From assembly GCF_014297275.1 (NCBI RefSeq), contig NZ_JACOQK010000001.1, positions 1,033,603 to 1,065,602 on the forward strand: a DNA stretch of 32,000 nucleotides. The letters run 5' to 3'. The notes beneath the pieces were generated by a model. It saw only the letters and a program-made list of their open reading frames with translations. It was not told where the DNA came from and ran no database searches. The stretch comes from Clostridium facile (GTDB lineage Bacteria > Bacillota > Clostridia > Oscillospirales > Ruminococcaceae). Below are positions 10,711 through 29,999 of this stretch, piece by piece. The position numbers and the translations under genes are program-made. Each line of letters starts with the position of its first letter. Positions within the stretch are counted from its first letter, which is position 1.

Positions 10711-11293
10711 ATTGTTTTTTTACCTCCATTTTATATGTGATTGTATTTTATCGTACACTGAAAATCATACCTTTTCGTTCGACAAAAACAGGTACAGATT
10801 CAGCCCATTTTTGGGTTTTTTGGTTGGGAAATAGCAGATACTATACCCATTTTAAGTGTGATGGAAAAAGTATACCATACGAAACGAAAAAAAGAAAGCA
10901 ATTTTCCTATTAATTGGGATTTATGTCAAATTTTCGTCGAATATCAATAAAATCTATGTAAAATCTTCGGGTTAAACTTTGTGTAAAATGCTATATTCAT
11001 TGTTTTGCAATACCACTTACTTCCTCATAATAGAACAATATGAAAAAAATACGGCTAATATGAGCCTGTACCAAAACCCATAACAGCCGTATTTTATTGT
11101 GTGGCTTCTATAATATCCGACACTTTGTTAGCATAAATAAAAACCATTTAAAATAATTTTATTACAAGACATCACAATTTCTTACCGATTATAAGGCTGT
11201 TATGGAATGATACCAAAACAGCCTAATGTATAGAAATAGATAACCCCCTGGTATAGGAAAATAAACAGCTACAACAATGGGATATCATAGACT

Positions 11294-13645
11294 TTATAAT
11301 TTCGTCAGCTTGGCGAAATTCGCCATAATCTTTTTTTTGCCTTTTGTTTGAAAATTGACTTCCAACAGGGTATCATTCCCCATCGGCTGCATGGATTCCA
11401 CAACGCCTTCCCCAAACACGGCATGTTTCACCCGGTCTCCTACAACGAAATTTACCACTGCTTGTTTTGGCTTTTGAGTGGTACCCACATTGCCCAGGTT
11501 AATATGAATGGGACGGGTGGACCGGCGGAATGCCTCAGATGTATGGGTAACTGTTTTATCCTCTGTTGATTTATACTGTTCTGGAATTTCTCCAAGAAAA
11601 CGGGATGGTCTAGCGTAACGGGTATTCCCGAACAGCATCCTCTGAGAGGCGTTAGTGATGTACAGCCACTTTTTGGCACGAGTAATCGCCACATATGCCA
11701 GACGGCGTTCCTCCTCCAGTTCCTCTGGATCGGACATGGACTGAATGCCTGGGAAAATCCCCTCTTCCATCCCCACGATAAACACCACAGGGAACTCCAG
11801 CCCTTTGGCGGAGTGCATTGTCATCATAGTAACCTTGTCCTCCTCACTGTTGTACTGGTCAAGGTCGGTATACAATGCCACTTCTTCTAGGAAGCCGGAG
11901 AGGGTTGCTTCCTCCTCCTGCTCGTCGGTGAATTTAATCAGGTTGGATTTTAATTCCTCAATATTTTCCAGCCTAGTTTCACCCTCTTTGCCCTGACGTT
12001 TGAGTTCATCTCTGTAACCGGTCAGTTCCATTACCTGGTTCAGCAATTCCTGGAGAGGCAGTTCCATTGCCTGTTCCTGCAAGTCCAAAATCATTCCGGC
12101 AAACTGTTTTAACGGAGTGGATTTTTTGGAAAGAGCCGCATAGGTATCCGCCTCTTTCAAGACATCAAACATGGAAATCCCCATACCGTCCGCAATCTCC
12201 TGCACCTTAGCAACCGTGCTGGCTCCTATGCCCCGCTTTGGCTCGTTGATAATTCGCTTTAGGCGAAGATTGTCGCTGGTTTGGTTAATCACACTTAAAT
12301 ACGCCAGGATATCCTTAATTTCTTTGCGGTCGTAGAATTTCATTCCTCCGACAATCCGGTAAGGGATACCTGAACGCACAAAATAATGCTCCAATGCGGA
12401 GGACTGGGCATTCATCCGGTATAAAATCACATGATCATGGTACGCCATACCGTCAATCACGTTTTTGGAAATGGTATCCGCCACAAACTCCGCTTCCGCA
12501 TTCTCGTTGAGCAGCCGCAGAACGTTGATTTTTTCCCCGTCCCCCTGGTCTGTCCAAAGATTTTTTCCTTTCCTTCCCAGGTTATTGGAAATCACCGCAT
12601 TGGCAGCGCTTAAAATATTTTGGGTGGAACGGTAGTTCTGCTCCAGCCGGATAACAACTGCGTTTTGGAACTGGTTCTCAAAGCTCAAAATATTTTCAAT
12701 GGTAGCTCCACGGAATTTATAAATACTCTGATCGTCATCCCCTACTACGCAGAGATTCTGGTGTCCCTGGCTCAACAGACTGACCAAGCGATATTGGGCA
12801 TGGTTGGTATCCTGGTACTCGTCCACTAATATGTAACGGAAACGGTTCTGGTAGTATTCCAATATATCCGGATTTTCTTCCAACAACACTACCGTTAAAC
12901 GGATAATATCGTCAAAATCCAGAGCATTGGAGGATTTTAAGCTGTTCTGATAGAAACGGTAAAGTTTGGCGATCTCTTTTTTCCGGAAATCCCCATAATT
13001 TTGAGCTTCGTATAGCTCTGGAGTCAGCATCTGATCTTTGGCACGGCTGATTTCCCCCAATATTGCTTTTGGCGGATAAATCTTATCATTCAGACCCATC
13101 TGACTCAGGCCATCTTTGATAACCCGAATACTATCGTCCGTATCATAAATGGTAAAGTTTTTCTGGTAGCCCAGACGCTCAATGTCACGGCGCAGGATTC
13201 GCATACATTGGGAGTGGAAGGTTCCCGCATGGATGTCCAGAGCGACATCTCCTAGCATGGCTTCCAAACGCTCTTTTAACTCCCCTGCCGCCTTATTGGT
13301 AAAGGTAATCGCCAGGATATTCCATGGACGTGGACAATCCACCGCAATCAACTGGCGCACCTGTTCTTCATCTACTGATTCACCATCCACTGCCCTCTGC
13401 AACAGATCAATATCCTGCTGGCTCAGATCAAACGGAATTTTTTCTGAAGCATAAGCATCTCCGAATGCCACCATATAAGCAATGCGGTTGACAATAACAG
13501 TGGTTTTTCCGCTGCCTGCTCCTGCCAGGATTAACAAAGGATTTTTTACCGTAAAAATTGCCTGGCGCTGCATCTCGTTCATATGGGAATATTTTTGTTC
13601 CAAATAAGCTCGTTTTAATGGAATAAATTGTTGTTCTAATGTCAT
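11294..13645 (-). CDS. pcrA: ATP-dependent DNA helicase PcrA (UvrD/Rep family)
   Basis: Motifs: Walker A AGAGSGKTTV, ILVDEYQDTN, VGDDDQSIYKFRGA, QNYRST, and a C-terminal Tudor-like tail (VGDRVKHAVFGEGVV). The start is placed at the ATG at 13645 (MTLEQQF...) with GGAGGAG 4 nt upstream. The track extension to 13783 lacks an RBS and adds non-helicase sequence. Confidence 0.92.
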   Translation of the reverse strand: MTLEQQFIPLKRAYLEQKYSHMNEMQRQAIFTVKNPLLILAGAGSGKTTVIVNRIAYMVAFGDAYASEKIPFDLSQQDIDLLQRAVDGESVDEEQVRQLIAVDCPRPWNILAITFTNKAAGELKERLEAMLGDVALDIHAGTFHSQCMRILRRDIERLGYQKNFTIYDTDDSIRVIKDGLSQMGLNDKIYPPKAILGEISRAKDQMLTPELYEAQNYGDFRKKEIAKLYRFYQNSLKSSNALDFDDIIRLTVVLLEENPDILEYYQNRFRYILVDEYQDTNHAQYRLVSLLSQGHQNLCVVGDDDQSIYKFRGATIENILSFENQFQNAVVIRLEQNYRSTQNILSAANAVISNNLGRKGKNLWTDQGDGEKINVLRLLNENAEAEFVADTISKNVIDGMAYHDHVILYRMNAQSSALEHYFVRSGIPYRIVGGMKFYDRKEIKDILAYLSVINQTSDNLRLKRIINEPKRGIGASTVAKVQEIADGMGISMFDVLKEADTYAALSKKSTPLKQFAGMILDLQEQAMELPLQELLNQVMELTGYRDELKRQGKEGETRLENIEELKSNLIKFTDEQEEEATLSGFLEEVALYTDLDQYNSEEDKVTMMTMHSAKGLEFPVVFIVGMEEGIFPGIQSMSDPEELEEERRLAYVAITRAKKWLYITNASQRMLFGNTRYARPSRFLGEIPEQYKSTEDKTVTHTSEAFRRSTRPIHINLGNVGTTQKPKQAVVNFVVGDRVKHAVFGEGVVESMQPMGNDTLLEVNFQTKGKKKIMANFAKLTKL

Positions 13646-16899: not shown

Positions 16900-17669
16900 A
16901 TTTCAATCCACGCTGCCCGTGTGGGCAGCGACGCATAGTAAAAACCTCCTATTAACTTGACTTTGTGTATTTCAATCCACGCTGCCCGTGTGGGCAGCGA
17001 CTTTGTCCCAACGGTTATGCCACTAGGGACACAAAATATTTCAATCCACGCTGCCCGTGTGGGCAGCGACGGTACACATGTTTAGACTGCAAACACGCAT
17101 TGCTATTTCAATCCACGCTGCCCGTGTGGGCAGCGACGGGTTTTATCTTTTTGACGATATTACTATTATATCATTTCAATCCACGCTGCCCGTGTGGGCA
17201 GCGACTTTAAACCTCATTGTATTAAAGATAATGTTAGGATTTCAATCCACGCTGCCCGTGTGGGCAGCGACGTTGGACGAATTGGAAAACAAAAAGGTTC
17301 AGTTGGATTTCAATCCACGCTGCCCGTGTGGGCAGCGACCTCTACGGTTTCCTGCCCGTCATAGTCCATACAATTTCAATCCACGCTGCCCGTGTGGGCA
17401 GCGACCAAAATCATCATGCCTCATGCTTGATATGCCATTATTTCAATCCACGCTGCCCGTGTGGGCAGCGACCTGCCGCTGGTTTTTTGCCATCCAGCAT
17501 GGAATATTTCAATCCACGCTGCCCGTGTGGGCAGCGACTTCTTGCCATGCAACAGTATAGCGGTACAAATATTTCAATCCACGCTGCCCGTGTGGGCAGC
17601 GACTGCTTTTCACTCCATATTATTTTATTCAATTCTATTTCAATCCACGCTGCCCGTGTGGGCAGCGAC
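16900..17669 (-). CRISPR. Type I-C CRISPR array: 12 identical 33-nt repeats and 11 spacers
   Basis: The repeat on the minus (transcribed) strand is GTCGCTGCCCACACGGGCAGCGTGGATTGAAAT, with the I-C signature GTCGC...stem-loop...ATTGAAAT. Repeat starts on the plus strand are 16900, 16969, 17038, 17105, 17173, 17239, 17307, 17373, 17440, 17506, 17571 and 17637. Spacer lengths from trailer to leader are 36, 36, 34, 35, 33, 35, 33, 34, 33, 32 and 33. Orientation follows from the cas genes and the leader on the 17670 side. Confidence 0.98.
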
Positions 17670-17838: not shown

Positions 17839-18129
17839 TTAAATTAAGAGCTCCCCTTCCAGTTCCAGGCTATCTTTCACCCCGTAATGCTCCACTTTTT
17901 TCTGGTACTGTTCTCCTAAATAATAGAAGCGGATGCTGTCCTTTTTCTCGTCAATATGACGGAGGAGCTTTTCTTTTACTTCACGGCTTTTGGCTGCGTC
18001 CATGATACATTCAAATACAGAGTTCTGCACCCGCTGGCCATAATTTTCACATTCTTTTGCCACCTTACGCAGGCGCTTTTTACCCGCTTCTGTTTCGGTG
18101 TTCACATCATAGGTGATTAAAACCAACAT
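17839..18129 (-). CDS. cas2: CRISPR-associated endoribonuclease Cas2
   Basis: 96 aa. MLVLITYDV...RLRKVAKECENYGQRVQNSVFEC is the canonical Cas2 ferredoxin fold. It is the last gene before the leader. Confidence 0.95.
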   Translation of the reverse strand: MLVLITYDVNTETEAGKKRLRKVAKECENYGQRVQNSVFECIMDAAKSREVKEKLLRHIDEKKDSIRFYYLGEQYQKKVEHYGVKDSLELEGELLI

Positions 18130-18138
18130 TGCTTTCCT

Positions 18139-19170
18139 CTACTTCCACAAAAATACTGGGTATTCATCCAGCTCACCTCGGATATATCTGGCAAGCAGCA
18201 GGCTTTGGGCATAAGGGATTAGCCCCCATTCTATCTTTTCCTCCAAAAATGGATGCTTGATCACCTCTTTTTTCTTTTGCTGCCATGCCTTTATGATAGT
18301 ATTCCGACCAGAATCCGTCATCAACACAGCCCCATTTTCCTTTTGGATAAAATCAGTGGGCTTTACCATGTTCCGGTTCACCAATCCAATGACAAAACGG
18401 TCAACAAACGGGGCTCGCAGTTCTTCCATGAAATCCATTGCCAAGGAAGCCCGACCTGGCCGTTCGCAGTGGAGGAAACCTACGTAAGGGTCCAATCCGA
18501 CTGAGGATAGAGCGGAGGTACAATCATTGGCAAGAAGGGTATACAAAAAGGAAAGCATGGCATTCATATTGTCCAAGGGGGGACGGCGGTTCCGTTCACG
18601 AAAGAAAAAATCCTGCTTGTTCCGCAAAATCAACTGGTCGATCATCGAAAAGTACTGACTGGCAGCATTTCCCTCAATTCCCCTGATTTCGTCCAACGAG
18701 CTACTTTCCATTAACTGATTGATAGAACCCGCAAGGTTGGAACTGACCTTTTTCAATTCTTCTACATCTACCTGTAAGGGATGATCCCTGGTGGCACGCT
18801 CTAAAATCCATCTGCTGTTATGGAGTTTTCCCACAATCATATTCCTAGCGATCCTTACTGACTGGGTTTCGTCATCCGAAATCCGGTACTGCTGTTTGCG
18901 CAGCACCACATTGCCTTTCATTTCCCCGGCAACACTAGCTAAGAACCTGCCATGCTGGCTCATAAAACAGAGGGAAATATTGTGTTTGACACATGCTCCC
19001 ATCAAGGCGGGACTGGCACCGGTGTACCCAAATGTAACTATCCCCTCCAAGTTGTGCAGAGGAACTCTGGCAACCGTTTTCCCCTGTTCCAGTACCAGTA
19101 CGGTTTCCCCTTCCAACGCCAGATATCGCTCGGGGGAAACTACGTAAAGGGTGTTTAATAATTTTCTCAT
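18139..19170 (-). CDS. cas1: CRISPR-associated integrase Cas1 (I-C type)
   Basis: 343 aa. Motifs: LNTLYV..., GNAASQYF, RRPPLDNMNAMLSFLYTLL, DPYVGFLH. It overlaps cas4 by 4 nt. Confidence 0.95.
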   Translation of the reverse strand: MRKLLNTLYVVSPERYLALEGETVLVLEQGKTVARVPLHNLEGIVTFGYTGASPALMGACVKHNISLCFMSQHGRFLASVAGEMKGNVVLRKQQYRISDDETQSVRIARNMIVGKLHNSRWILERATRDHPLQVDVEELKKVSSNLAGSINQLMESSSLDEIRGIEGNAASQYFSMIDQLILRNKQDFFFRERNRRPPLDNMNAMLSFLYTLLANDCTSALSSVGLDPYVGFLHCERPGRASLAMDFMEELRAPFVDRFVIGLVNRNMVKPTDFIQKENGAVLMTDSGRNTIIKAWQQKKKEVIKHPFLEEKIEWGLIPYAQSLLLARYIRGELDEYPVFLWK

Positions 19171-19841
19171 GGCTCCTCCTCCCCGGTTTGCCTCCTGATA
19201 TAATCATGGACAGAAGGGCGTTTTAACAATTTTGGCAGGCAAATTTCCTTTAAGGAACAGGCGTTGCAGGCTTTTGTTCGTTTGACCATTGGCGTATGTC
19301 GCCGTTGAAACAAATCGTGCATCTGGGCGCATACATTCTCCAGTTTTTGACGAAACTCCTGGGTAATCTCCACCTTTTCCCGGTGCCGTGTGGCACCATA
19401 ATACAGATATCCATATGGGATATCGGTACACAGCATCTCTTCCAGGCAAACTGCTTGCGCCACAAGCTGGAGCCTGTCCGCATCGCTGATTTTGGGTTCC
19501 CCTTTTTTGTACTCCACCGGAACAACCCGGTAAAATCCTTCTTTTTGGAACAGGGAGATCCCTTCCTGCTGGGTGCAGCGGTGGAACTCCACTACATCGC
19601 AAATCCCGCTGATTCCTAATTTTGCGGAAAACACCCGCATCTCCCGGGAAATGAGCAGTTGTCCCCTGCTCTCCAAAGTTGGTCCCTCATGGGCTCTCTG
19701 GTGCAGAATGTTCCCCTCTATGGTTCGCAGGTTATCCGCCCACTGCTCTTCGATTTCAATCAACGCCCACTGCCGCTTGCAAAACACAAAGTGCTGTATC
19801 CCAGAGAGCATCAAGAAATCTTCCTCTTTATATTCCGTCAT
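19167..19841 (-). CDS. cas4: CRISPR-associated exonuclease Cas4 (RecB-like, Fe-S cluster)
   Basis: 224 aa. It has an N-terminal Cys (FVFCKRQW), the nuclease core DVVE...EYKKG, and the C-terminal cluster CNACSLKEIC. Confidence 0.9.
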   Translation of the reverse strand: MTEYKEEDFLMLSGIQHFVFCKRQWALIEIEEQWADNLRTIEGNILHQRAHEGPTLESRGQLLISREMRVFSAKLGISGICDVVEFHRCTQQEGISLFQKEGFYRVVPVEYKKGEPKISDADRLQLVAQAVCLEEMLCTDIPYGYLYYGATRHREKVEITQEFRQKLENVCAQMHDLFQRRHTPMVKRTKACNACSLKEICLPKLLKRPSVHDYIRRQTGEEEP

Positions 19842-20691
19842 ATTCTTCTACTGTTAACCCTTCCAGCGGGGTGAGGGTAATCTGGTAGTCCTCTATGCTT
19901 TTTGGGGTAAGAACCCCTTCTTTTTTGGCAACGCAAAGGCTATCGTGAACCTTTTTGGTGGAATACTGGCCAATTTTGCAGTTGTGTTCCCACCAGTAGA
20001 GCTTATGAATCTCCATACTGCCTTCCGGACGTGCGGAGGAACTATCGTTGACAAAAAGGGTGCGGATAGCTTCTTTGATTTTTTCCGCGTCCTCCTGGGT
20101 AAATCCGGTTTTTTCTGCAAGCTGGACGTTGATGCTCCCTTTTAAGAGGTATACACCAAAATCAACCCGGTGCTTATCCCCCATGGTGTCTGATGCTTTC
20201 CCTCCTTTGGTATCCTCACTGTTGACGCTTTTGGTGATTTTGATAGTGGTGATATTGATTGGATCCACGCTAAATGCTGGATGGAGGGAAACCGGCCCCC
20301 TTATTCCGAGGGAAAGTTCTTCCCCCTTAAAAGCGAATACTTGTCCAAAGCTGCGTACATCCATCCACTCTTGGCAAGCGGCTTGATAGGCTACTTGCGC
20401 ATTGGCTTTTTTCCCTTTTTTCAGTTCTGTGCCAAAGGCGGGGTTTTTATCCGCCCGCTCTTTCAGGCTGTCATAACCATCCACATTTTTGTCATCGGAC
20501 TGGACAAAGATGGATTCCCCCATATCCATCAGGCGGTTTCTGATTTTCCGTTTGATGCAGACATCCGAAATCTCCCCAAACCCTTCATCAGTGATTCTTG
20601 GCATATTTCCGTTGAGGGGATCGCCGTTGCAGTTTGCGTTATTTACTGTAATAATTGCCTCAAAATCAATTTTATTTTGTAATACACCCAT
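19828..20691 (-). CDS. cas7: Cascade backbone subunit Cas7 (Csd2, type I-C)
   Basis: 287 aa. NANCNGDPLNGNMPR is the Csd2/Cas7 N-terminal signature. The position after cas8c fits. Confidence 0.92.
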   Translation of the reverse strand: MGVLQNKIDFEAIITVNNANCNGDPLNGNMPRITDEGFGEISDVCIKRKIRNRLMDMGESIFVQSDDKNVDGYDSLKERADKNPAFGTELKKGKKANAQVAYQAACQEWMDVRSFGQVFAFKGEELSLGIRGPVSLHPAFSVDPINITTIKITKSVNSEDTKGGKASDTMGDKHRVDFGVYLLKGSINVQLAEKTGFTQEDAEKIKEAIRTLFVNDSSSARPEGSMEIHKLYWWEHNCKIGQYSTKKVHDSLCVAKKEGVLTPKSIEDYQITLTPLEGLTVEEYDGI

Positions 20692-20692
20692 T

Positions 20693-21127
20693 TTATTCTT
20701 CCTCCATCTTCTGTGATTTTTTTATTTGCCGTTCTTTGATAATTTGTATCCTTTGGCTGCAAAAACCAGATAAAAATGCCGCCCCCAAATTTCGTTTCTT
20801 TTTCAGTTCTTTCGTATCAATTCTACTGACCATTTCGTCTAATAAATCGCATAAATCGCAGAGTTTTATCCCCTTGGATTGCATAATGTAAACATTCACC
20901 TTATTGTAAAGTACTGTTAACGTGTCGTAAGGGCTCTGGCAAAACCGCGTAAGAAGCCTTCTCGCATTGGTAGGGCGAACTTCTTTATAAGATTCGTTGT
21001 CATCCGGCTTATTTTTTCCCCACAGCACCTGATTTTCAATAGCATCAGCAAGTGCCACAAATCTTCCGCAATTGTATTCAATATCATCAGTTTCTTTTAC
21101 ACAATTAAAAACACCATTTTCTCCCAT
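20693..21127 (-). CDS. cas11: Predicted internally translated small subunit Cas11c (144 aa, in frame within the cas8c 3' end)
   Basis: In-frame ATG at 21127 (MGENGVFNC...) is preceded by GGAGGA (21135-21140) with a 7-nt spacer. Type I-C systems are known to make Cas11 from an internal start in cas8c. The size and helical, basic C-terminus are consistent. Confidence 0.5.
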   Translation of the reverse strand: MGENGVFNCVKETDDIEYNCGRFVALADAIENQVLWGKNKPDDNESYKEVRPTNARRLLTRFCQSPYDTLTVLYNKVNVYIMQSKGIKLCDLCDLLDEMVSRIDTKELKKKRNLGAAFLSGFCSQRIQIIKERQIKKSQKMEEE

Positions 21128-22651
21128 AACAAATTCCTCCATTCTATAAATCAACGGATTGTCCTTATCGTAATCATATAAATAACGGTTATATAAGGCG
21201 CATGCCGCAAAAGCAACTTGTTCCCATAAGGACCCATAGCCATAGTTTTGTGGGAATTTCGCCTTGTTGACAGCAGCTTTTACAATATCCCGTGGAATTT
21301 TCGCCCCATCACAGATACAGGGCAGAATCCGCTGCACAGTATCTGCTAACAGCTTATTACTTCCCACTTCCAGATAGTTGCCCCTGCTCACCCCAAACGC
21401 CGCTTTTGCCAGATTCACTGGGGACGGCGCACCAAAATGGTATTCTTGTTTTTTTATCTCGTTGTAATAACGGATATTCCAGGCGCAGGTTTTGTGCCAT
21501 CGCTCTATGTTGTCAATCAGTTCGTTTCCTTGCAGTCCATTGTACTCTCGGTTGAAAACCACCGCCATCCTTCCGGTAGTAGCAGCATCCAACCCCAACA
21601 GCACCAGCTGGCTGTCCTTCCTGATTTCAGCGTGATAACCTGTAATCGCCATTTTAAACTGTTGGGCAAACTCCTGTTCAGTATTAATTTCCACACTCTG
21701 CTCCTCAAAGCAGAACTGGAATGTATCCGCCATGGGGTCGGGGAGTTCTTCCCCATCCACTCCCCACAGAACGAATACACGGTCACCAATTCTGGCAACT
21801 TGCTTCTGGTTCTGAATCAGCCATTTTAAGGCGTTATGGGCTTTTTGGGACGCCTCATAGGATATGGTATACGCTTGTTCCGCTGTTTCAAACCGTCCAC
21901 GGAAAGTAAAATTGGTGGTATCATTGGCAGAAATCAATTTTGCCTTATCACCGGAATTTCTGATTTTAGACGGATGGATGGTGCAGGCCCTTACATGATT
22001 TCCTGTGACATAACAGAGTTTTTTGCTGCCCTCCTGGCTCAAGTAGTAGTTTGTATATTGGTCTTGCAGTTTTCCATCCTGCCACAACGCGGGGACAGAA
22101 TCAATCCCAATCACCGAAAACCGTACAAAGGCATCGGATTGGTTGCCCACCGGCAGTTTTAAATTAGGCTGGTTTTCCCATTTCTTTGTCAACCTTCCGT
22201 TTTCATCCACCGAAAAAATACCCTGTTCCACCAAATCGTGAATCAATGTTTTCTGGTTCAGATACTGGTAAACCGCTTTGACCTTTGGGTTGCTGTACGA
22301 AGATTCACACCATGCTTGTAATTGTTCCATATACGCCTGATAGGCTTCGGCGTTATCCTCTTTGCAGAACCGGGGATAATCCCCCGCTATGTACTTTAGT
22401 TTATCGAATAAAGGATGGGGGCATGGTTTGGATGTCCGGTTGGCGGAATATTCAGTTACCGGTATCACCGTATCCGCTTGATCTTTTTCCACAGGGGTTG
22501 CAGAGATAAACTGCCCCTCCTTGCCCAGCTTGACATCCACATGCGCCTGTTGGGTGGAGAATCCCACCTTAAGCAGCCCTCTTTGGGTGAAATTAGCGGG
22601 GTCTTTTTCCAGCCTTTCATAGGTACGGTACAACGTCATCATGTAACTCAT
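20693..22651 (-). CDS. cas8c: Cascade large subunit Cas8c (Csd1, type I-C)
   Basis: 652 aa. Csd1-like N-terminus (VIPVTEYSANRTSKPCPHPLFDKLKYIAGDY). It sits between cas5 and cas7, with a 4-nt overlap with cas5. Confidence 0.92.
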   Translation of the reverse strand: MSYMMTLYRTYERLEKDPANFTQRGLLKVGFSTQQAHVDVKLGKEGQFISATPVEKDQADTVIPVTEYSANRTSKPCPHPLFDKLKYIAGDYPRFCKEDNAEAYQAYMEQLQAWCESSYSNPKVKAVYQYLNQKTLIHDLVEQGIFSVDENGRLTKKWENQPNLKLPVGNQSDAFVRFSVIGIDSVPALWQDGKLQDQYTNYYLSQEGSKKLCYVTGNHVRACTIHPSKIRNSGDKAKLISANDTTNFTFRGRFETAEQAYTISYEASQKAHNALKWLIQNQKQVARIGDRVFVLWGVDGEELPDPMADTFQFCFEEQSVEINTEQEFAQQFKMAITGYHAEIRKDSQLVLLGLDAATTGRMAVVFNREYNGLQGNELIDNIERWHKTCAWNIRYYNEIKKQEYHFGAPSPVNLAKAAFGVSRGNYLEVGSNKLLADTVQRILPCICDGAKIPRDIVKAAVNKAKFPQNYGYGSLWEQVAFAACALYNRYLYDYDKDNPLIYRMEEFVMGENGVFNCVKETDDIEYNCGRFVALADAIENQVLWGKNKPDDNESYKEVRPTNARRLLTRFCQSPYDTLTVLYNKVNVYIMQSKGIKLCDLCDLLDEMVSRIDTKELKKKRNLGAAFLSGFCSQRIQIIKERQIKKSQKMEEE

Positions 22652-23376
22652 TGGGCGCCACCCCCTTCCTGGTAACCCTCCAGAAGCCCAGGCTCCTGCA
22701 AACCGGAAAAGTTGGAAGAATCAAACCGTTTCGGTTTCATCTCCCTCACTGGAATCCGTTGGACACAATCCTCCTGTTTACAGTAGCGAATCACGCCCCG
22801 CTCCATTTTAGGATACCAGAACAACGCCTCCAATTGGTTGGTACCGTTCTGGTCAGGGTAAACAAACGAGTGGAACATCAGCCCAAAGTCCATCTGCTCC
22901 AAATCGCTGTAACAGCTCTGTTCCTCCCCTGTAACTGGTTCCACGTATGCCTGGCATTCCCGCGCCCCTAAAAAGACATCCCGCCTGCCTCCTTTTTCGA
23001 TGCAGCGTTTCGCAACCCAGTAGTGTTTATGCTCGTTCCAGTCCTGTTTTAAATCGGGACGATATAGGTTGAACTCAAAATGCGCCTTGACAATGTAGGA
23101 CACATTTGATAAGTACGTGTAATACGCCAAATCGTTGCCGCCGTAGTATTTGATGGGGCGAATGCCCTTCCGCTCGGTACGGATGGGGTTTAAAACCGTT
23201 GCTTCATCGATTATCCATAAAATAGACGGCTTCCAGTACACCGATGACACAATCCCTTTTAACGCCTCAGCAGTGGGAATCATCAAGGTGGATTTTTCCC
23301 CACCAATTTTGGTCATGGGGTCGGTGAATAAGGCGAATCTACCAGAAACCTTAAAAGTGACCTGATTTGGTTTCAT
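22648..23376 (-). CDS. cas5: Cas5c (Cas5d), Cascade subunit and pre-crRNA endoribonuclease of type I-C
   Basis: 242 aa. MKPNQVTFKVSGRFALFTDPMTK... is the Cas5d N-terminal signature. An AGGAGG RBS lies 8 nt upstream. It is the first gene of the tightly packed cas5-to-cas2 operon. Confidence 0.93.
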   Translation of the reverse strand: MKPNQVTFKVSGRFALFTDPMTKIGGEKSTLMIPTAEALKGIVSSVYWKPSILWIIDEATVLNPIRTERKGIRPIKYYGGNDLAYYTYLSNVSYIVKAHFEFNLYRPDLKQDWNEHKHYWVAKRCIEKGGRRDVFLGARECQAYVEPVTGEEQSCYSDLEQMDFGLMFHSFVYPDQNGTNQLEALFWYPKMERGVIRYCKQEDCVQRIPVREMKPKRFDSSNFSGLQEPGLLEGYQEGGGAQ

Positions 23377-23400
23377 TGCTGTTCCTCCTTTCTAACTTTT

Positions 23401-23429
23401 CTTATACTATTTTTCACTTATTTTGTAAA
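23401..23429 (-). promoter_or_regulatory. Sigma-A-type promoter of the cas5-cas8c-cas7-cas4-cas1-cas2 operon
   Basis: On the minus strand: TTTACA (23429-23424), 17 nt, TATAAG (23406-23401). This puts a start site about 20-25 nt upstream of the cas5 RBS. It is the only reasonable -35/-10 pair in the gap in this orientation. Confidence 0.6.
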
Positions 23430-23472
23430 GGGAAATTTTTCATAAAAAAACAGCTTTCTTCTTGTACATTTT

Positions 23473-23483
23473 TATGGTATACT
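23473..23483 (+). promoter_or_regulatory. Extended -10 promoter (TATGgTATACT) driving the repeat-like small RNA
   Basis: A TRTGn-TATACT motif on the plus strand ends 6 nt before the G of the GTCGC repeat-like element. There is no good -35, which is typical for extended -10 promoters. Confidence 0.55.
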
Positions 23484-23489
23484 AAAAGC

Positions 23490-23596
23490 GTCGCAATTTG
23501 CGTGGATTGAAAATCTTATACTATCTTTAACGAAAGAACTGCTTTGTAACAGGTGAGGACGCTATCCTTGTCTGTTGCAAAGCTTTTCTTTTTTCT
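23490..23596 (+). ncRNA. Solitary degenerate CRISPR repeat plus pseudo-spacer plus terminator: candidate crRNA-mimic regulatory RNA (CreR/CreA-like)
   Basis: 23490-23514 reads GTCGCAATTTGCGTGGATTGAAAAT. This is the array repeat with its upper stem replaced by AATTT and one extra A in the handle. The pseudo-spacer starts at 23515 (CTTATACTATCTTTAAC...). A hairpin at 23541-23583 and a T-run at 23584-23596 follow. Orientation is opposite to the cas genes and the array. Confidence 0.65.
23541..23596 (+). terminator. Intrinsic terminator (plus orientation) abutting the cas3 stop codon
   Basis: A 12-bp stem GCTTTGTAACAG / CTGTTGCAAAGC (one G-U pair) with inner AGGA/TCCT pairing, then TTTTCTTTTTTCT. 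In the minus orientation the hairpin is followed only by AGTTCTTTCGTT, a weak U-tract. Confidence 0.7.
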
Positions 23597-23597
23597 C

Positions 23598-25946
23598 TTA
23601 AAACAGCGCCAGATCATCTTTCAGGGTTACCCCCAGGCAAGCGTCATAATGGAGGGACCCCATCAGGTATGCCCCTGTCACCTGATTTTGGGTGATATCA
23701 TTCTGTAACGTCTGGAACTGGTATCGGTACAGATTGACCGAATATTTCCGCAATTGGGAAAGTAATCTTTTCTTTTCCTCCATAGGTGAAAACTCGTTAA
23801 GCTGCTCCAGTTTTTCTATGAGTTGTAACCCCTCCCCATAAGGGACAATCACTGGGATGGTATCGTTTCCAATCACCTCAAAGGGTTGCGCTGCCGATTG
23901 GAATTTTACTGTAGTAAATAATGGGCTTTTTCTGATTTTATTTTGTAGTAATTCATAAATGGATACAGATCCATTCAAAGGGTAGGAAAACTGTTTGGAA
24001 ATCCGCTCATCCTGATAATAAAGCTGAAAAAACTCCTTAATAGAGGATGGAGATAAACCGTCTGAGGTCATCCGCAGCACGCTATCCGCATGGTCGATTC
24101 CAATTGGATATTCCGGCATGTTATTGTAAGAGCCTTCCTGCAATTTTACCGCATAGCAATAACCCAGTTCCTGTTCCCCATTACGGTTGACCCTACCCGC
24201 TGTCTGGGCAACCGAATCCAGACGGGTTAAGCTGCGGACCGCTGCTTCAAAGCTGATATCCACCCCAGCTTCAATGAGCGAAGTGCTGACGCAGATTAAG
24301 TCCTCCCCATCTTTTAGCGCCTGCTTTAGTTCCTTCAACACCTTGCCTCTATGTGCCTGACACAAGCGGGTACTCAAATAAAACAGATTTATCCCTTCCA
24401 GTTCGGGAGATTGGCACAGCATTTCCCAAACAGCAGCTGCGGTATCCACCTTATTCACCACTGCCAATAGGCTTTTTACCTCGCGTTTTCTCTCCAAGAG
24501 GAACTGCTGAAATTGTTCCAAGTCATATTTCTTTGGCTTATAGACCACCTGTACTCGCTTGAGCTGCTCAAAATTGCGGCTGACATTCTTCACAATTTCA
24601 GCATCTTCCGATTCTTTTATCATGGGATGCCCCAGAAGATTCGTATAAGGCTGGGTAGCAGTACAAAGTACTAGGGTAGAATTCCCTACCTGGCGCAGAA
24701 AATTGGCTGCGCTTGTGAACAAATCCATACATTTGGCAGGAAGGGTTTGGATTTCATCAAAAATAATGGTGGCATTCATCAGATGGTGGAGACGGCGCAT
24801 GTCCTGAGTACCTCGATGGTAGAAGGTGTTTAAAAACTGCACCATAGTCGTAAAAATGATATCGCTCTCCCAACGTTCGGTAAGCAGTTTATAATCCTCC
24901 TGCTGGTTATCCTCCAACAGGTTGGAATGGTGCTCCAGCAAATCGCACTGGTAGCCCAGAGCTTTCCGAATTTGTTCAGCGTTTTGCTCGATGATTGAAG
25001 TATATGGAATGACATAGACAATCCGCTGTTTTTGATTTAGCCGGTTATGGTTCAGGGCAAACCGCATACTGGAAAGGGTTTTCCCTCCCCCTGTTGGAAC
25101 AGTAAGACGGTAGATACCCGTCCCTCTATTGGACGCAAGAAAACATTCATCCGAGATTGCTTGCCGAATCCGGTTTACCTGCTCTGTTTTGGGTTCCGCA
25201 GATGATTTCTGGCTGAGTTGGGACAGATAAACCTCAAACCTACCTTGGTATTCCTCCCATGCTGGGAATTGCTGTTCCCGTTCTATTACAGGGGAGATCC
25301 CCCTGTTTTCCTCAAAGCACATGCTGTCCATCCGGTCGGCGTCAATCAGTATGCTGTAGATGGTTTTGATCAGCAGGTGGTAACAGAACACCCCATCTTT
25401 CATTTTTGTAACCCCTTCGATAATAGGAACCAGTTCTTCTAACGCTTGGTGGAACAGTTTGGTAAGATCTTCTTGGATTTCCTGGGAAAACCGTTGGTAT
25501 GCCTGTTCTATCCTGTGTTGGTCTAGTTTTTCGAACCGCTCCAAAAGAGGGGATTGATTACAGACATCCACACAATCTTTTAATCCGCCATGGTGGTAGC
25601 AGCACGCCATGGCGATGATTTCCACGATGGCGCCACGCCGGCTTTTTCCCGGATAAAAGGTTTGGAAAAAATATTTTGCCCCATATACCCCATGGTCAAA
25701 ATCGGATTTCCGTTTCTGGGAAAGGTACTGCTTTGGGTTTTGCACTGCCCGCTGCCGTTCCCCTTCGATAAAATCCTGGAACTGCTGGTCGTATTTGCCC
25801 ATATCATGGAGCAAACCCGCCAGGCGCATGGTTTGAGAAAGGTTTAATTTTGCCCCGAATGATTCTGACAGACTGGCAACCCCTAAAATATGCTCCCGTA
25901 ACGGCTGCTGTTTTCCATCCTGTAGCCGGAACCTTGCCTGATACAT
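23598..25946 (-). CDS. cas3: Cas3 helicase-nuclease (N-terminal HD domain plus SF2 DEAH helicase)
   Basis: 782 aa. HD motifs (LAGLLHDMGKY, DHGVYGA), Walker A TVPTGGGKT, DEAH-box variant FDEIQ, and the helicase C-domain (TSLIEAGVDISF, AGRVNR). An AAGGAG RBS precedes the ATG. Confidence 0.95.
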   Translation of the reverse strand: MYQARFRLQDGKQQPLREHILGVASLSESFGAKLNLSQTMRLAGLLHDMGKYDQQFQDFIEGERQRAVQNPKQYLSQKRKSDFDHGVYGAKYFFQTFYPGKSRRGAIVEIIAMACCYHHGGLKDCVDVCNQSPLLERFEKLDQHRIEQAYQRFSQEIQEDLTKLFHQALEELVPIIEGVTKMKDGVFCYHLLIKTIYSILIDADRMDSMCFEENRGISPVIEREQQFPAWEEYQGRFEVYLSQLSQKSSAEPKTEQVNRIRQAISDECFLASNRGTGIYRLTVPTGGGKTLSSMRFALNHNRLNQKQRIVYVIPYTSIIEQNAEQIRKALGYQCDLLEHHSNLLEDNQQEDYKLLTERWESDIIFTTMVQFLNTFYHRGTQDMRRLHHLMNATIIFDEIQTLPAKCMDLFTSAANFLRQVGNSTLVLCTATQPYTNLLGHPMIKESEDAEIVKNVSRNFEQLKRVQVVYKPKKYDLEQFQQFLLERKREVKSLLAVVNKVDTAAAVWEMLCQSPELEGINLFYLSTRLCQAHRGKVLKELKQALKDGEDLICVSTSLIEAGVDISFEAAVRSLTRLDSVAQTAGRVNRNGEQELGYCYAVKLQEGSYNNMPEYPIGIDHADSVLRMTSDGLSPSSIKEFFQLYYQDERISKQFSYPLNGSVSIYELLQNKIRKSPLFTTVKFQSAAQPFEVIGNDTIPVIVPYGEGLQLIEKLEQLNEFSPMEEKKRLLSQLRKYSVNLYRYQFQTLQNDITQNQVTGAYLMGSLHYDACLGVTLKDDLALF

Positions 25947-26319: not shown

Positions 26320-26718
26320 ATGCGAAAAGCAATACGAGAATTTTTGATTTATGACGCCTTTGTTGCGGTTACTATGATTGCAAGATATTTTGTAGTGAAT
26401 GATATTGAGTGGGGATATTTTTGGCTTTGCGTGGTCTATTTTCCAACTGTTTTTTTGTTTCAACCAGTTTTTGGGTTACTACTGGGATACCGGGCAATAA
26501 AAAAATATAATATCCCCTGCTTGCGGTTTTTAGCGTTAAGCCTGCTGTTCTTTCTGATCAACGGTTTTACATTTTCTATTCTATCCATAGGAAGTGCGTA
26601 CACATATGGATTTATAGATACTTTTTGGAACACCGGTTTGATATATGCGTGCATATTCATTGCGTTTTACTGGTTGTCCTATTTTATTACAAAATTTTAT
26701 TTGAAGTTTTATTTTTAA
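26320..26718 (+). CDS. Hypothetical integral membrane protein (132 aa, about 4 TM helices)
   Basis: GGAGGG RBS, and TATAAT-like GTTATAAT upstream. The sequence is strongly hydrophobic and aromatic-rich. No family recognised. Confidence 0.6.
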   Translation: MRKAIREFLIYDAFVAVTMIARYFVVNDIEWGYFWLCVVYFPTVFLFQPVFGLLLGYRAIKKYNIPCLRFLALSLLFFLINGFTFSILSIGSAYTYGFIDTFWNTGLIYACIFIAFYWLSYFITKFYLKFYF

Positions 26719-27086: not shown

Positions 27087-29999
27087 TTATTGAAATGGCT
27101 GTTCTATCTGCTGTTTTAAAAAGAGCAGGTTACGCAAACAAGAAAGGGTTTGTGGATCGGATTCCCCCAGCGTATCCCTGAGGATGAAAAAGGAGCGTTC
27201 CAGATAATCCAATGCTTTACAAAGCTTCCTTTGCATAAAGTAGGCATGGCCAATTTCATTGTAATCCACAGCGATTTCCGGATGCAGTTCTCCAAGGATA
27301 TGTTGATGAATCCGTAAGGCTTTTGGGTAAAAGCCAATCGCTTTATCATACAAACATTGGATTTCATATAAATCCCCAATTAAGATATATTCCTCTGCTA
27401 CCTCCATAGATTCTTCCCCAAAAGCCTTCTGGCTGGCACGTAAAGAGTTTTGGTAAGCTTCCAGCGCATTTGAATATTCCTTTTGGAGGCTGTAAAGATG
27501 ACCAATATTATGGAAAAGGGTTGTGATTGCCTGAATATTTTCTTTTGTCTGCCCTTGTTCGATTTGCAGGCATTTTTGATAACACTCCAACGCTTTGGCA
27601 TAATTTTTCTGGCAACTATATAAATAGGCGATTGCGTTATACACCATGGACACGTTAGTATCCTGTTCTCCATACAGGTTCTGGGTTACTTTTAGCGCTT
27701 TCTGATAATATTCCAACGCCTTTGGATATCGTTTCCAATCCTGGTACATTTGAGCAATATTGTTATAGTAGGTGACAATATTGGGATGGTTTTCCCCCAA
27801 CAATTCCAGCTCTATTTCCAGTGCTGTTTGAAAATACCTCACCGCATTTGGATAATCTCCCATACCATAATAGGCTCCACCAATATTGTTATAGATCGTT
27901 GCGGTGGATTTATGAAATCCTTCTGTAAGATTTTGGTCGATTTCCAACGCCTTTTGGTAATACTCCAATGCTGTAGTATATTCTCCTTTTCGATGGTGTA
28001 CCATTCCAATATTCAGATAATTGACAATAATATTGGGATGCTGTTCCCCAAAAACCCTGCGGTTGATTGCTAGCCCTTTTTGATAATATTCTAATGCTAG
28101 TCCTAATTTTTGTTGCCTGCTATAGACACCTCCAATGTTATGGTAACAGGCTGCGGTTTCTGGATGTTCTTCCCCCAGTATCTTCTGGTTGATTTGCAAC
28201 GCTTTCGTATAATATTCTAAAGCGGTTTCATTATCCCCAAAGATAACATAAATCGAACCCATATTATTGTATACCGATGCTGCTGTATGCCCCTTGGAAT
28301 ATTTTTCGTCCAAAGCAATCGCCTTCTGATAATATTCCAATGCTGCGGCATAATCCCCTTTTTCAAAATAAAGCAATCCAATATTTCCATAAATGGAATA
28401 CAGCCGCAGCTCTTCTTTTATTTTTTTCTGATGAATATTCAGTGCTTTATTGTAATATTCCAGTGCAACATCATACTGGCACAGGTATTGGTATACCATA
28501 CCAATATTTTCATACTCTGTAGCAACCTGCAAGCACTCTTCTCCTAAGGTGTTCCGGACAATTTGCAAGGATTTTTGGTAATACGCCAAAGCGTCCATAT
28601 ATTTGCCACAATCGCAGTATACTAGCCCCATACTATTGTAAACAGATGCAGTATACACATCCTCTTTTCCAACTGTTTGGAGAAAAATGTTAAGCGCTTT
28701 CTGATCATATTCCAACGCTTTTGGAAAGTTGGCTCCTTGGCGAAGCAATTCAGCGTACTTGAGGAAAAAATTAGCATATGCCACGTCATCTCCTTCAATC
28801 CGTTTCGCTACAGCGTCTCCAAACTGGGAAATCTCCTGTCTTTGCTGGCAGGTATCGCAGTAGGAACCTAGATAATCGAAAATTGCTTCCAGATAACACC
28901 AGCAGTCCTTGATGTTGGGGGTTAGGTCATTCTCTAGAATATCTGCCATCACAGGATGGAGGGAATAGTGGGTGTTTTCGTTCCGTACCCATCCACGGGC
29001 TACCAACTGTTTCAGTTGGGGTAGTTTGGTTGATTCCATCCCACACCATTTTAGGAACTGCTTCCCGTCCACACCAGTGTAAGGAACCAACAATAAATTC
29101 CTTAACAGATAAATTTGATCCTCCGACAGTTTCTCCCTGCTAATATCAAAAATAGCGCGTAAATGTTGGTACATACTTTTTTGGGATTGCTTTCCGTCCT
29201 TATTCAAGGGGATCACGGTATCCTGATGATCTTTGAGTTTTTCCCTTAGTTCCTCCAGCATTTCCGCCAGGGGGATTTCTTCCTCCCGTATCTGTTTTGC
29301 CAGAAGCTCCACCGTCATGGTGTGTCGATCCACCAGCTGAATCAATTCATCCAGTTGGGCAAGTTCATCCTCTGTAAAATCCGTGCTTCCGTAAGAATGA
29401 AAAAACACCTCCCTAGCCTGTTCCGATTCCAATGGCATCACCTTAACCTGCTGTTTCCCATACTGACTCCAATCATTCCGGGTAGTAAACAACAGATACC
29501 ATCCCATTGATTCCAGATCTTCCATCTCATCGGATTCTGTTTCATTGAAATTATCCACGATGAGTAAAACCCTTTGCTGGGCACACAATTGTTTTATCAC
29601 GGCCTTTTTTTGCAAATAATACTGTTCTAATTCTTCCGCTTTCGCTTTCGCTGGAATAGAAAAACCTCCCAAAGTTATCCCTAGAACAACATCCCGCAAA
29701 CTGGAAGCGTAATTTGCCCATACTACACTACCGTTCCACCGGGTGGCATATTGTTTGGCGAGCTCACTTTTCCCGATGCCGCCTATCCCCCAAAGAAATA
29801 CCGTCCTGCCTTCCTGGAATTTTTGTTCCAGTGTTTCCAACTCCTGTTCCCTGCCAACAAACCCTTCTTTCAGCGGGATGGCTGAGCAGAGGATACTGTA
29901 TTGTTTTTCCCCGTTGGGATGAAGATGGATATTGTATTCCGAAAGGTAGGTTGGCCCCTGGTTTTTCATCTCCTCAATCCGGATTCCGTCCTGTCCCAT
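27087..29999 (-). CDS. STAND NTPase (NB-ARC/AP-ATPase-like P-loop) with a C-terminal array of about 13 TPR repeats (970 aa)
   Basis: A short N-terminal module of about 45 aa is followed by FVGREQELETL, Walker A GIGGIGKSELA, Walker B LLIVDNF and LLFTTRN. Then come 13 copies of a 42-aa TPR unit with a recurring ALEYYQKAL core (about 27120-28760). An AGGAGG RBS lies 5 nt before the ATG and overlaps the stop of the upstream gene. Confidence 0.88.
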   Translation of the reverse strand: MGQDGIRIEEMKNQGPTYLSEYNIHLHPNGEKQYSILCSAIPLKEGFVGREQELETLEQKFQEGRTVFLWGIGGIGKSELAKQYATRWNGSVVWANYASSLRDVVLGITLGGFSIPAKAKAEELEQYYLQKKAVIKQLCAQQRVLLIVDNFNETESDEMEDLESMGWYLLFTTRNDWSQYGKQQVKVMPLESEQAREVFFHSYGSTDFTEDELAQLDELIQLVDRHTMTVELLAKQIREEEIPLAEMLEELREKLKDHQDTVIPLNKDGKQSQKSMYQHLRAIFDISREKLSEDQIYLLRNLLLVPYTGVDGKQFLKWCGMESTKLPQLKQLVARGWVRNENTHYSLHPVMADILENDLTPNIKDCWCYLEAIFDYLGSYCDTCQQRQEISQFGDAVAKRIEGDDVAYANFFLKYAELLRQGANFPKALEYDQKALNIFLQTVGKEDVYTASVYNSMGLVYCDCGKYMDALAYYQKSLQIVRNTLGEECLQVATEYENIGMVYQYLCQYDVALEYYNKALNIHQKKIKEELRLYSIYGNIGLLYFEKGDYAAALEYYQKAIALDEKYSKGHTAASVYNNMGSIYVIFGDNETALEYYTKALQINQKILGEEHPETAACYHNIGGVYSRQQKLGLALEYYQKGLAINRRVFGEQHPNIIVNYLNIGMVHHRKGEYTTALEYYQKALEIDQNLTEGFHKSTATIYNNIGGAYYGMGDYPNAVRYFQTALEIELELLGENHPNIVTYYNNIAQMYQDWKRYPKALEYYQKALKVTQNLYGEQDTNVSMVYNAIAYLYSCQKNYAKALECYQKCLQIEQGQTKENIQAITTLFHNIGHLYSLQKEYSNALEAYQNSLRASQKAFGEESMEVAEEYILIGDLYEIQCLYDKAIGFYPKALRIHQHILGELHPEIAVDYNEIGHAYFMQRKLCKALDYLERSFFILRDTLGESDPQTLSCLRNLLFLKQQIEQPFQ

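Follow-up and report, generated by a model that had tools for sequence, protein, structure and literature searches.

A probable CreR-type crRNA-like RNA gene between cas3 and cas5c of a Clostridium facile type I-C locus, predicted to repress its own Cascade operon

Introduction

Why should 221 nt separate cas3 from cas5c in a CRISPR-Cas locus whose remaining cas junctions overlap or span at most 9 nt? The question is raised by a complete type I-C locus of Clostridium facile, in which cas3, cas5c, cas8c, cas7, cas4, cas1 and cas2 all lie on the minus strand. The locus was analyzed within a 32,000-nt stretch of contig NZ_JACOQK010000001.1 (positions 1,033,603 to 1,065,602), hereafter the window, to which all coordinates refer unless a relative is named. 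An original prediction for this DNA had drawn attention to the unusual length of the gap (23377–23597), which our measurements bear out, and had proposed that it encodes a CreR-type mimic of a CRISPR RNA (crRNA) guiding the I-C Cascade to the promoter of its own operon. The present analysis supports that proposal by concerted changes of guide and target among close relatives, and by the presence of the same unit in 38 of 39 long cas3–cas5c gaps of a wider sample. The gap very probably encodes a CreR-type regulatory crRNA-like RNA (crlRNA) of type I-C that represses its own Cascade operon.

Results

Structure of the crRNA-like RNA gene

The crRNA-like RNA gene lies on the plus strand of the gap, opposite to the cas genes. 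Its core is a repeat-like sequence, GTCGCAATTTGCGTGGATTGAAAAT (23490–23514), in which GTCGC...GCGTGGATTGAAA (23490–23512) is identical to the ends of the array repeat GTCGCTGCCCACACGGGCAGCGTGGATTGAAAT, itself invariant in all 12 copies. Within the 32 kb, the 13-mer GCGTGGATTGAAA occurred only in the 12 array repeats and in the gap element (0.09 occurrences expected by chance). The 5′ part of this truncated repeat (PsiR), at 23490–23502, is made of GTCGC and a 4-bp mini-hairpin, CGCA (23492–23495)/ATT/TGCG (23499–23502), and ends at the predicted Cas5c cleavage site. The 11-nt 5′ handle TGGATTGAAAA follows at 23503–23513, its counterpart in the array repeat being TGGATTGAAAT, and the truncated repeat as a whole (mini-hairpin plus handle) spans 23490–23513. 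A degenerate repeat on this strand had been part of the original prediction and was found at 23490–23514, but the “inserted A” described in it is merely position 11 of the handle. An 11-nt handle is what remains when Cas5c cleaves a repeat at the 3′ base of its stem. I-C crlRNAs were seen to be cut in this way too (10.1101/2024.12.27.630466). Behind the handle comes a 17-nt pseudo-spacer (psiS; TCTTATACTATCTTTAA, 23514–23530), the hypervariable, target-matching part of an otherwise conserved gap.

A TG-extended −10 element (TATGgTATACT, 23473–23483) was read from the sequence upstream of the repeat, with a predicted start at ~23490. It is kept in the alignment of the clade described below, in agreement with the claim that the gene has a promoter of its own. 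A two-hexamer sigma-70 scan called no promoter on either strand of the gap, so that the evidence for this promoter, as for the predicted promoter of cas5c, is conservation. On the other side of psiS, a terminator scan detected an intrinsic terminator (23541–23596), composed of a 19-bp hairpin (23541–23583) and the T-run TTTTCTTTTTTCT, directly after the stop codon of cas3 on the other strand. A hairpin with a T-run had been anticipated here, and only the length of its stem, given as 12 bp, needed correction. The terminator is conserved in the clade, where no compensatory pairs were seen in the alignment, the members being too closely related. The predicted 108-nt RNA folded as the 4-bp mini-hairpin plus the terminator, with a minimum free energy of −34.5 kcal/mol (z = −5.6 against shuffles).

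When frames were checked in the 221 nt, the gap held no gene and no credible open reading frame (ORF) in the direction of the cas genes. Three short frames of 33–51 aa overlap it, two of which run into the coordinates of flanking genes and one of which crosses PsiR. No Rfam family matched 23377–23597, even when E values up to 1 were allowed.

Target, PAM and predicted cas5c promoter

The psiS target, TCTTATACTATTTTTCAC (23400–23417, plus strand), lies 23 nt upstream of the cas5c ATG. Of its 18 positions, 16 agree with psiS, the first 11 of them without interruption; positions 12 and 16 differ. The original prediction had noted that the 10 nt behind the handle recur exactly, and CTTATACTAT was indeed found at 23401 and 23515 and nowhere else in the 32 kb (0.06 expected). 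To estimate chance matching, the 113-nt target-side region, from cas5c to the repeat-like sequence, was shuffled 200,000 times; a match to the seed (positions 1–5 and 7–11) with a TTY protospacer-adjacent motif (PAM) arose in 44 shuffles (~2 × 10−4). Chance is thus rejected as the source of the pattern set out in the original prediction. No other psiS target beyond chance was found in the window, where the site upstream of cas5c is the only seed match with a PAM, and cas3 therefore appears to lie outside the proposed feedback loop.

The PAM is 5′-TTT (23397–23399) on the psiS-identical plus strand. In all seven haplotypes of the clade, the match begins exactly 11 nt past the mini-hairpin's base, and the target has TTT in front of it. 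This register of the relatives places the handle at 23503–23513, psiS from T23514, the target from T23400 and the PAM at TTT. It settles two alternatives that had been left side by side: the 11-nt handle, with a spacer start at 23514, 11 contiguous matches and a first mismatch at position 12, was the correct option, and TTT is retained as the PAM at the expense of TTC, which belonged to a shifted register. Longer handles, of 12 nt or of 13 nt (which would make the PAM TTC), were ruled out since PAM-flanked seed matches across the family occur only at the 11-nt register. The idea that TTT is a consequence of a repeat ending in T was not supported either, as relatives with T-ending repeats use TTC at their crlRNA targets.

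TTT is plausible as a functional PAM in this lineage. Spacer 5 of the window has a 33/33 protospacer in IMG/VR contig IMGVR_UViG_2788500145_000004, preceded by TTT in the same register; it is the sole spacer match in the IMG/VR scans, and the evidence on the natural PAM consists of this one protospacer. The protospacer (L178:1507–1539) also ties the 29-kb viral contig to the host lineage of the window. BLAST searches of the window and Massilioclostridium coli arrays against GenBank phages returned no protospacer. TTT is accepted, or is the second-best PAM, in the I-C systems of Xanthomonas albilineans, in experiments that include Cascade-only repression (10.1101/2021.10.18.464778), and of Ketogulonicigenium vulgare (PMC10520945), and the former source relays the same for Legionella pneumophila (PMC5602111, via 10.1101/2021.10.18.464778). 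A TTT-PAM I-C lineage is listed for Lachnoclostridium, a genus of Clostridia (PMC8482600).

On the minus strand, the target meets the predicted promoter of cas5c–cas2 (23401–23429), with −35 TTTACA (23429–23424), a 17-nt spacing and −10 TATAAG (23406–23401). The −10 lies inside the psiS target, CTTATA at 23401–23406 being the reverse complement of TATAAG. The overlap of the target with the −10 of a TTTACA-17-TATAAG promoter, as originally described, is thus confirmed by sequence for a promoter that is itself predicted. It is particular to the window lineage: in sister lineages, TAATAT or TAAAAT stands 17 nt from the −35, and the target falls a few nt downstream of that hexamer. The −35 TTTACA is invariant in the clade. 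Compared with all sister lineages (L163–L173), the window lineage has a 25-nt deletion in the region of 23400–23430, which eliminated the predicted sister −10 (TAATAT) and put TATAAG, part of the target, at a distance of 17 nt from the conserved −35. The conserved −35 region is the only element in the 60 nt that separate the target from the crlRNA promoter. The RBS (ribosome-binding site) of cas5c, AGGAGG, is at 23389–23384 on the minus strand.

Covariation of psiS and target within the clade

Window Cas5c is identical to WP_186996300.1 (Clostridium facile), and its 90%-identity cluster takes in Massilioclostridium coli and many gut-metagenome contigs. This informative clade (C. facile/M. coli, Cas5c at least 90% identical) was reached through protein clusters and yielded 17 loci, the best match among GTDB genomes and JGI metagenomes being only 65% identical. 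Clade members differ little in the gap (mean pairwise difference 0.105, compared with 0.28 in psiS), and the variation is found in two stretches, psiS after the handle and the target after CTAAC-TTT beside the cas5c RBS.

Seven haplotypes were distinguished. The window combines psiS TCTTATACTATCTTTAA with target TCTTATACTATTTTTCA (mismatches at 12 and 16), and L161 combines the same psiS with target TCTTATATTATTTTTCA, which has T at position 8. In M. coli (L163), psiS ATTGTGTTGTATTTTGA faces target ATTGTTTTGTATTTTGA with a mismatch at position 6; L166 has the same target and psiS ATTGTATTGTATTTTGA, in which position 6 is A and the mismatch remains. Psi-spacer and target are identical over 17/17 positions in L169 (TCTTGTATTGCATTTAA) and in L173 (ATAGTATTGTGTTTTGA), and L171 pairs psiS TCTTATATTGCATTTAA with target TCTTATATTGCTTTTAA, mismatched at position 12.

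Positions 1, 2, 3, 4, 5, 7, 9, 10 and 11 are variable among the haplotypes, and at each of them psiS equals its target in 7/7. At positions 6, 12 and 18, psiS and target vary independently. Type I Cascades flip positions 6, 12 and 18 out of the duplex. The flipped-out positions are also cited in connection with I-C crlRNAs (10.1101/2024.12.27.630466). Two psiS allele families exist in the clade, differing at 12/17 positions; a given psiS matches its own target at 13–15/15 pairing positions and the targets of the other family at 4–6/15. Covariation of seed and promoter in orthologous loci had been named beforehand as a check of the original prediction, and its outcome was positive.

Only one seed change among the seven haplotypes is uncompensated, namely C8 in psiS against T8 in the target of L161. 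The window is C8/C8, and L169 and L171 are T8/T8. Cas5c of L161 is identical to that of the window, and L162 shares the T8 target variant. Over 271 nt comprising the gap and its flanks (L161:1020–1270), L161 departs from the window only at window position 23407, where C is replaced by T; this variant is also seen in L162:1–103. T is apparently the ancestral state at target position 8, and L161 looks like an uncompensated intermediate of which the window is the compensated state.

L169 has a cas1 in three pieces, each a short ORF (11213–12242), and degenerate array repeats of three variants; the crlRNA and its target still agree at 17/17 positions.

A family of crlRNA genes in type I-C loci

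The wider sample comprised 160 loci with Cas5c relatives of 52–65% identity, taken from GTDB genomes and JGI metagenomes. In 148 of these, cas3 lies directly upstream of cas5c; they are the loci nearest to window Cas5c rather than a random sample. The gap is short in 109/148 (median 16 nt), and the handle motif was found in 0/109 of these. It is at least 150 nt long in 39/148, and a unit of promoter, truncated repeat, psiS and hairpin, on the strand opposite to the cas genes, is present in 38/39.

Anatomy was compared in 41 unique gaps pooled from all fetched loci, the clade included. A TG-extended −10 (e.g., TATGGTATAAT) stands 18–24 nt upstream of the handle in 34/41. In 39/41, a mini-hairpin with a stem of 3 bp or more directly abuts the handle, compared with 38% of shuffles, and the 41 gaps contain 19 different stem sequences, i.e., pairing was kept while the sequence changed (compensatory). 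A terminator (hairpin plus T-run) was detected in 28/41 gaps; its hairpin starts 16–32 nt after the start of psiS in 24/28, and 20–27 nt after it in 22/28.

A perfect seed (positions 1–5 and 7–11) flanked by a TTC or TTT PAM was found in the same gap, at the 11-nt register, in 32/41 cases, and in 41/41 when one mismatch was allowed. Registers of 8–10 and 12–14 nt gave 0–1 PAM-flanked seed matches, and unrelated pairs of psiS and gap gave 0/1194 perfect matches and 10/1194 with one mismatch. Mismatches cluster at positions 6 (28 cases), 12 (23 cases) and 17–18. The PAM is TTC in 29 gaps and TTT in 8; the other 4 are low-complexity gaps, in which the best match is probably not the true site. The eight TTT gaps are those of the window and its clade, with seven distinct psiS/target pairs, one of which occurs in two gap sequences that differ elsewhere. 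Judged by these shared sequence features, the window element is a member of a coherent, widespread RNA gene family in I-C loci of Bacillota and Chloroflexota.

Some gaps depart from the arrangement seen in the window. In 12 loci (L026, L031, L067, L080, L098, L100, L117, L121, L123, L126, L134, and L142), the target is on the other strand, 72–111 nt from the cas5c start and between two divergent promoters, not beside the RBS. Four loci with gaps of 643–1004 nt (L025, L038, L053, and L127), on different contigs, carry a small standalone HTH_Tnp_1 gene (IS3 OrfA-like, 92–124 aa) in cas orientation between the crlRNA gene and cas5c, and L053 and L127 have similar guide-like segments. In L025, L038 and L053, a TTC-flanked crlRNA target lies just upstream of the HTH_Tnp_1 gene, not beside cas5c; in L127 the best match is flanked by TAA, which is not a PAM, and is probably not the true site. 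The HTH_Tnp_1 gene may be a CRISPR-supervised regulator or a cargo gene. Three further loci (L045, L058, and L143; gaps of ~530–545 nt) have ORFs of 72–82 aa behind the crlRNA target, in cas orientation and without a Pfam match, which are candidates for small cargo or toxin genes.

The cas genes, the array and their surroundings

The separate upstream unit cas3 occupies 23598–25946. The first gene of the Cascade operon is cas5c (22648–23376; TIGR01876, 231 bits), the predicted processing endonuclease, followed by cas8c (20693–22651), cas7 (19828–20691), cas4 (19167–19841), cas1 (18139–19170) and cas2 (17839–18129). The CRISPR array (16900–17669, minus strand), with 12 identical 33-nt repeats and 11 spacers, is the source of competing crRNAs. 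GenBank MT838487.1 (“Bacteriophage sp.”, 5.2 kb, human faeces) showed ~72–75% identity over 100–500 nt to the array regions of the window and M. coli. These matches are probably I-C-like repeats, and the entry may be an array-carrying or mislabelled contig.

The order TPR protein, 132-aa ORF, cas3, gap and cas5c is common to all loci of the clade with a long enough contig. The TPR-repeat-rich protein of 970 aa (27087–29999, minus strand) is encoded immediately upstream of the cas3 region and is syntenic in the clade. The 132-aa ORF (26320–26718, plus strand) is divergent from cas3 and has no match in NCBIfam or Pfam; its position is kept in all long clade contigs (L163, L164, L165, L166, L169, L171, L173, and L174).

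Discussion

Proposed mechanism

The sequence and the comparison of the loci establish the anatomy of the element, the handle register, the conservation of the PAM, the covariation of psiS with its target, and the conservation of the mini-hairpin and the promoter. Transcription, Cas5c processing, Cascade binding and the direction and strength of any effect on the cas genes are predictions; for expression, processing and loading, the conserved TG-extended −10, the compensatory changes in the mini-hairpin and the terminator give indirect support. The crlRNA would be transcribed divergently from the Cascade operon, starting at ~23490 from the TG-extended −10 and ending at the intrinsic terminator. 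Cas5c would cut at the 3′ base of the 4-bp mini-hairpin, releasing the 11-nt handle TGGATTGAAAA followed by a guide that could pair over at most ~17 nt. Loaded into Cascade, this guide would recognize 5′-TTT followed by TCTTATACTAT... at 23397–23417, on the predicted −10 and 23 nt from the start of cas5c, and would form a PAM-dependent R-loop of at most ~17 bp (23400–23416). Pairing cannot extend past ~17–18 nt, because the conserved base of the terminator takes up psiS from position 18 onwards; it is there that mismatches in the family accumulate. With so short an R-loop, Cascade would sit on the site and block transcription of cas5c-cas8c-cas7-cas4-cas1-cas2, the R-loop being too short to license Cas3. 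In the window the block would fall on the −10, in M. coli farther downstream, at about +3 to +20; both positions lie inside the footprint of RNA polymerase. A negative feedback would result: a shortage of Cascade, its titration by crRNAs or its inhibition by anti-CRISPRs would release the operon from repression. This logic is borrowed by analogy from the CreR literature (10.1101/2023.03.10.532045).

Alternative explanations

The alternative that survives best, improbable as it is, accepts that the RNA is made and loaded but gives it a main role other than repression of cas5c–cas2, either as a sponge for Cas5c or Cascade, as a terminator of cas3, or as a guide to a distant target. The hairpin directly adjoins the cas3 stop codon and could serve as a bidirectional terminator, the RNA of the long-gap relatives with a small cargo gene targets a site upstream of that gene and not beside cas5c, and the target search covered 32 kb of the genome only. 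Against this, the sole PAM-flanked seed match in the window is the one upstream of cas5c, and psiS covaries, in 7/7 haplotypes, with a target only 23 nt away from the cas5c start, which neither a decoy nor a distant target would need.

It is less probable still that the locus is an addiction module like CreTA, in which the targeted promoter would drive a toxin RNA or peptide, silenced by psiS, and cells would depend on Cascade. CreA and CreR RNAs have a common anatomy (10.1101/2023.03.10.532045), and small ORFs lie behind the target in some long-gap relatives. In the window, however, the target runs straight into the cas5c RBS, which stands between it and the ATG; the gap offers no credible ORF in cas direction, and the 60 nt towards the crlRNA promoter leave room only for the −35 region. 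As the original prediction had argued, CreR is favored over CreTA by the lack of a toxin behind the targeted promoter.

Activation or stabilization of transcription by bound Cascade, of the CRISPRe type, is about as improbable. One type I-C system was reported to enhance transcription, together with Cas3, at target sites with non-PAM motifs beside them (PMC10520945). CRISPRe-type activation was rejected here since it requires non-PAM motifs, and TTT is an interference-proficient PAM in that same study (PMC10520945). The position of the site, on or just downstream of the predicted −10 and beside the RBS, is moreover one at which Cascade would block, and all tested crlRNAs of this anatomy repress (10.1101/2024.12.27.630466).

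That the element is an inert CRISPR-repeat remnant with a chance similarity is scarcely credible: the gap is AT-rich, matches counted without regard to a PAM are common and cross-locus best matches average 12/18, but the element stands on the other strand from the array with a promoter and a terminator of its own, recurs in 38/39 long gaps of many genera, matches only at the 11-nt register beside a PAM (0/1194 in unrelated controls) and covaries position by position with freedom at 6, 12 and 18, which already contradicts a remnant.

Several points weigh against autorepression by a CreR-type crlRNA. The case for this locus and for the Bacillota family is drawn from sequence comparison. The PAM is TTT and not the canonical TTC found in 29/41 family members, and a single protospacer supports it. 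The mini-hairpin has only 4 bp, and cutting of such a stem by Cas5c is a prediction. TATAAG is a weak −10 hexamer, and the consensus scan called no promoter there; should most cas5c expression come from transcripts that read through from cas3, the element would work as a roadblock and not by promoter occlusion. Finally, the uncompensated mismatch at position 8 in L161 and L162 indicates that the match is not under absolute constraint.

Relation to known systems

The class of CreR and regulatory crlRNAs is already known, including for type I-C, and the differences of the window element define no new class. Autorepression by CreR was demonstrated for types I-B, I-E and V-A by Liu et al. (2023), who found I-C examples by eye (Fig. 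S7; 10.1101/2023.03.10.532045). The window element resembles CreR in being a standalone degenerate repeat in the cas locus that keeps the 5′-handle nucleotides, has no toxin gene, and carries a short psiS matching a PAM-flanked site at the promoter of the effector cas genes; autorepression relieved by crRNA competition or anti-CRISPRs is predicted for it likewise. CreRs, however, are described there as mini-arrays with PsiR1 and PsiR2, whereas the window element has a single PsiR, an intrinsic terminator in place of the second repeat, and a TTT PAM.

Solitary repeat units of type I-C producing crlRNAs control the Nezha, Gabija and CRISIS defence genes (10.1101/2024.12.27.630466). Each of these crlRNAs combines a single PsiR with an 11-nt handle and a 3′ hairpin and matches its target over 16 bp, position 6 being mismatched; their repression of promoters depends on Cascade (10.1101/2024.12.27.630466). 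The window element shares with them the subtype, the cas3–cas5c interval, the single PsiR hairpin (Cas5c-cut there, predicted so here), the 11-nt handle, the 3′ hairpin and a match of ~16 bp with mismatches tolerated at 6 and 12, and a PAM other than TTC (TTA) occurs there too. The cargo systems, mostly from Neisseria, repress defence genes inserted between cas3 and cas5c, with the repeat unit adjoining cas5c. The 221-nt gap of the window contains no such non-cas defence gene or any other gene; in this gut member of the Clostridia, it is the Cascade operon that is the predicted target, and the unit is found beside the cas3 stop codon on the opposite strand, with an intrinsic terminator and TTT.

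Repression by regulatory mini-arrays was validated for type I-F1 by Shmakov et al. (2023), whose survey highlights I-E, I-F1, I-D and I-B and reports, for I-C, a mini-array in 7% of loci and a repeat-like sequence in 34% (PMC10120712). Mini-arrays and the present family have in common repeat-like sequences in long cas3–Cascade intergenic regions, transcribed opposite to cas3, with the seed beside the better-conserved repeat, a PAM-flanked target in the Cascade promoter and mismatches at every sixth position. The family described here differs in being single-repeat, and a search for mini-arrays could therefore under-count it.

The Racr and Cracr RNAs of viruses derive from solitary repeats and are loaded into Cas proteins, and Cracr RNAs copy the guides of host CreRs (PMC10651486; 10.1101/2024.10.29.618823). 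These are encoded by phages or plasmids and act against the host, whereas the window element belongs to the chromosome, and its synteny is kept in two species as well as in metagenomes. The remaining comparison is with CreTA. There, in the system of Li et al. 2021 (via 10.1101/2023.03.10.532045), a degenerate crRNA, CreA, reportedly guides Cascade by partial pairing to repress the promoter of a toxin gene. A degenerate crRNA and Cascade-mediated promoter repression by partial pairing would be common to both; CreA, in contrast, silences a toxin, and no toxin is present at the window locus.

Evolution of guide and target

PsiS and its target may constitute a rapidly evolving “lock and key” under diversifying selection, by which the host escapes phage-encoded guide copies (Cracr RNAs) that hijack autorepression, with TTT as a deliberately sub-optimal or lineage-specific PAM that tunes repression and avoids Cas3 licensing and self-priming. 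This idea, which we consider rather unlikely, was suggested by the occurrence of at least seven haplotypes in a gap that is otherwise ~90% conserved, the L161 intermediate, the 25-nt deletion and the lineage-specific TTT. No phage-borne copies of handle plus psiS were found in IMG/VR.

Significance

The mechanism itself would not surprise a specialist; what merits attention is how fast guide and target turn over in concert, and that the TTT PAM is specific to the lineage. As far as the searchable literature shows, repression of cas promoters in type I-C has been predicted and not demonstrated, and repression of cargo genes has been shown. The single-repeat unit, for which Rfam has no model, is present in 38/148 I-C loci, a quarter of a sample that is nearest to window Cas5c and not random, compared with the 7% reported with mini-arrays. 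The natural series of covarying guide/target pairs is, in addition, a ready-made mutational data set on the seed rules of the I-C Cascade, and suggests that positions 6, 12 and 18 are free, that ~17 nt are enough, and that the PAM is TTC or TTT. If the proposed autorepression is true, the Cascade and adaptation genes of a human-gut lineage of Clostridia are under RNA-guided negative feedback while cas3 is expressed separately, and CRISPR output should rise once crRNAs or anti-CRISPRs draw Cascade away.

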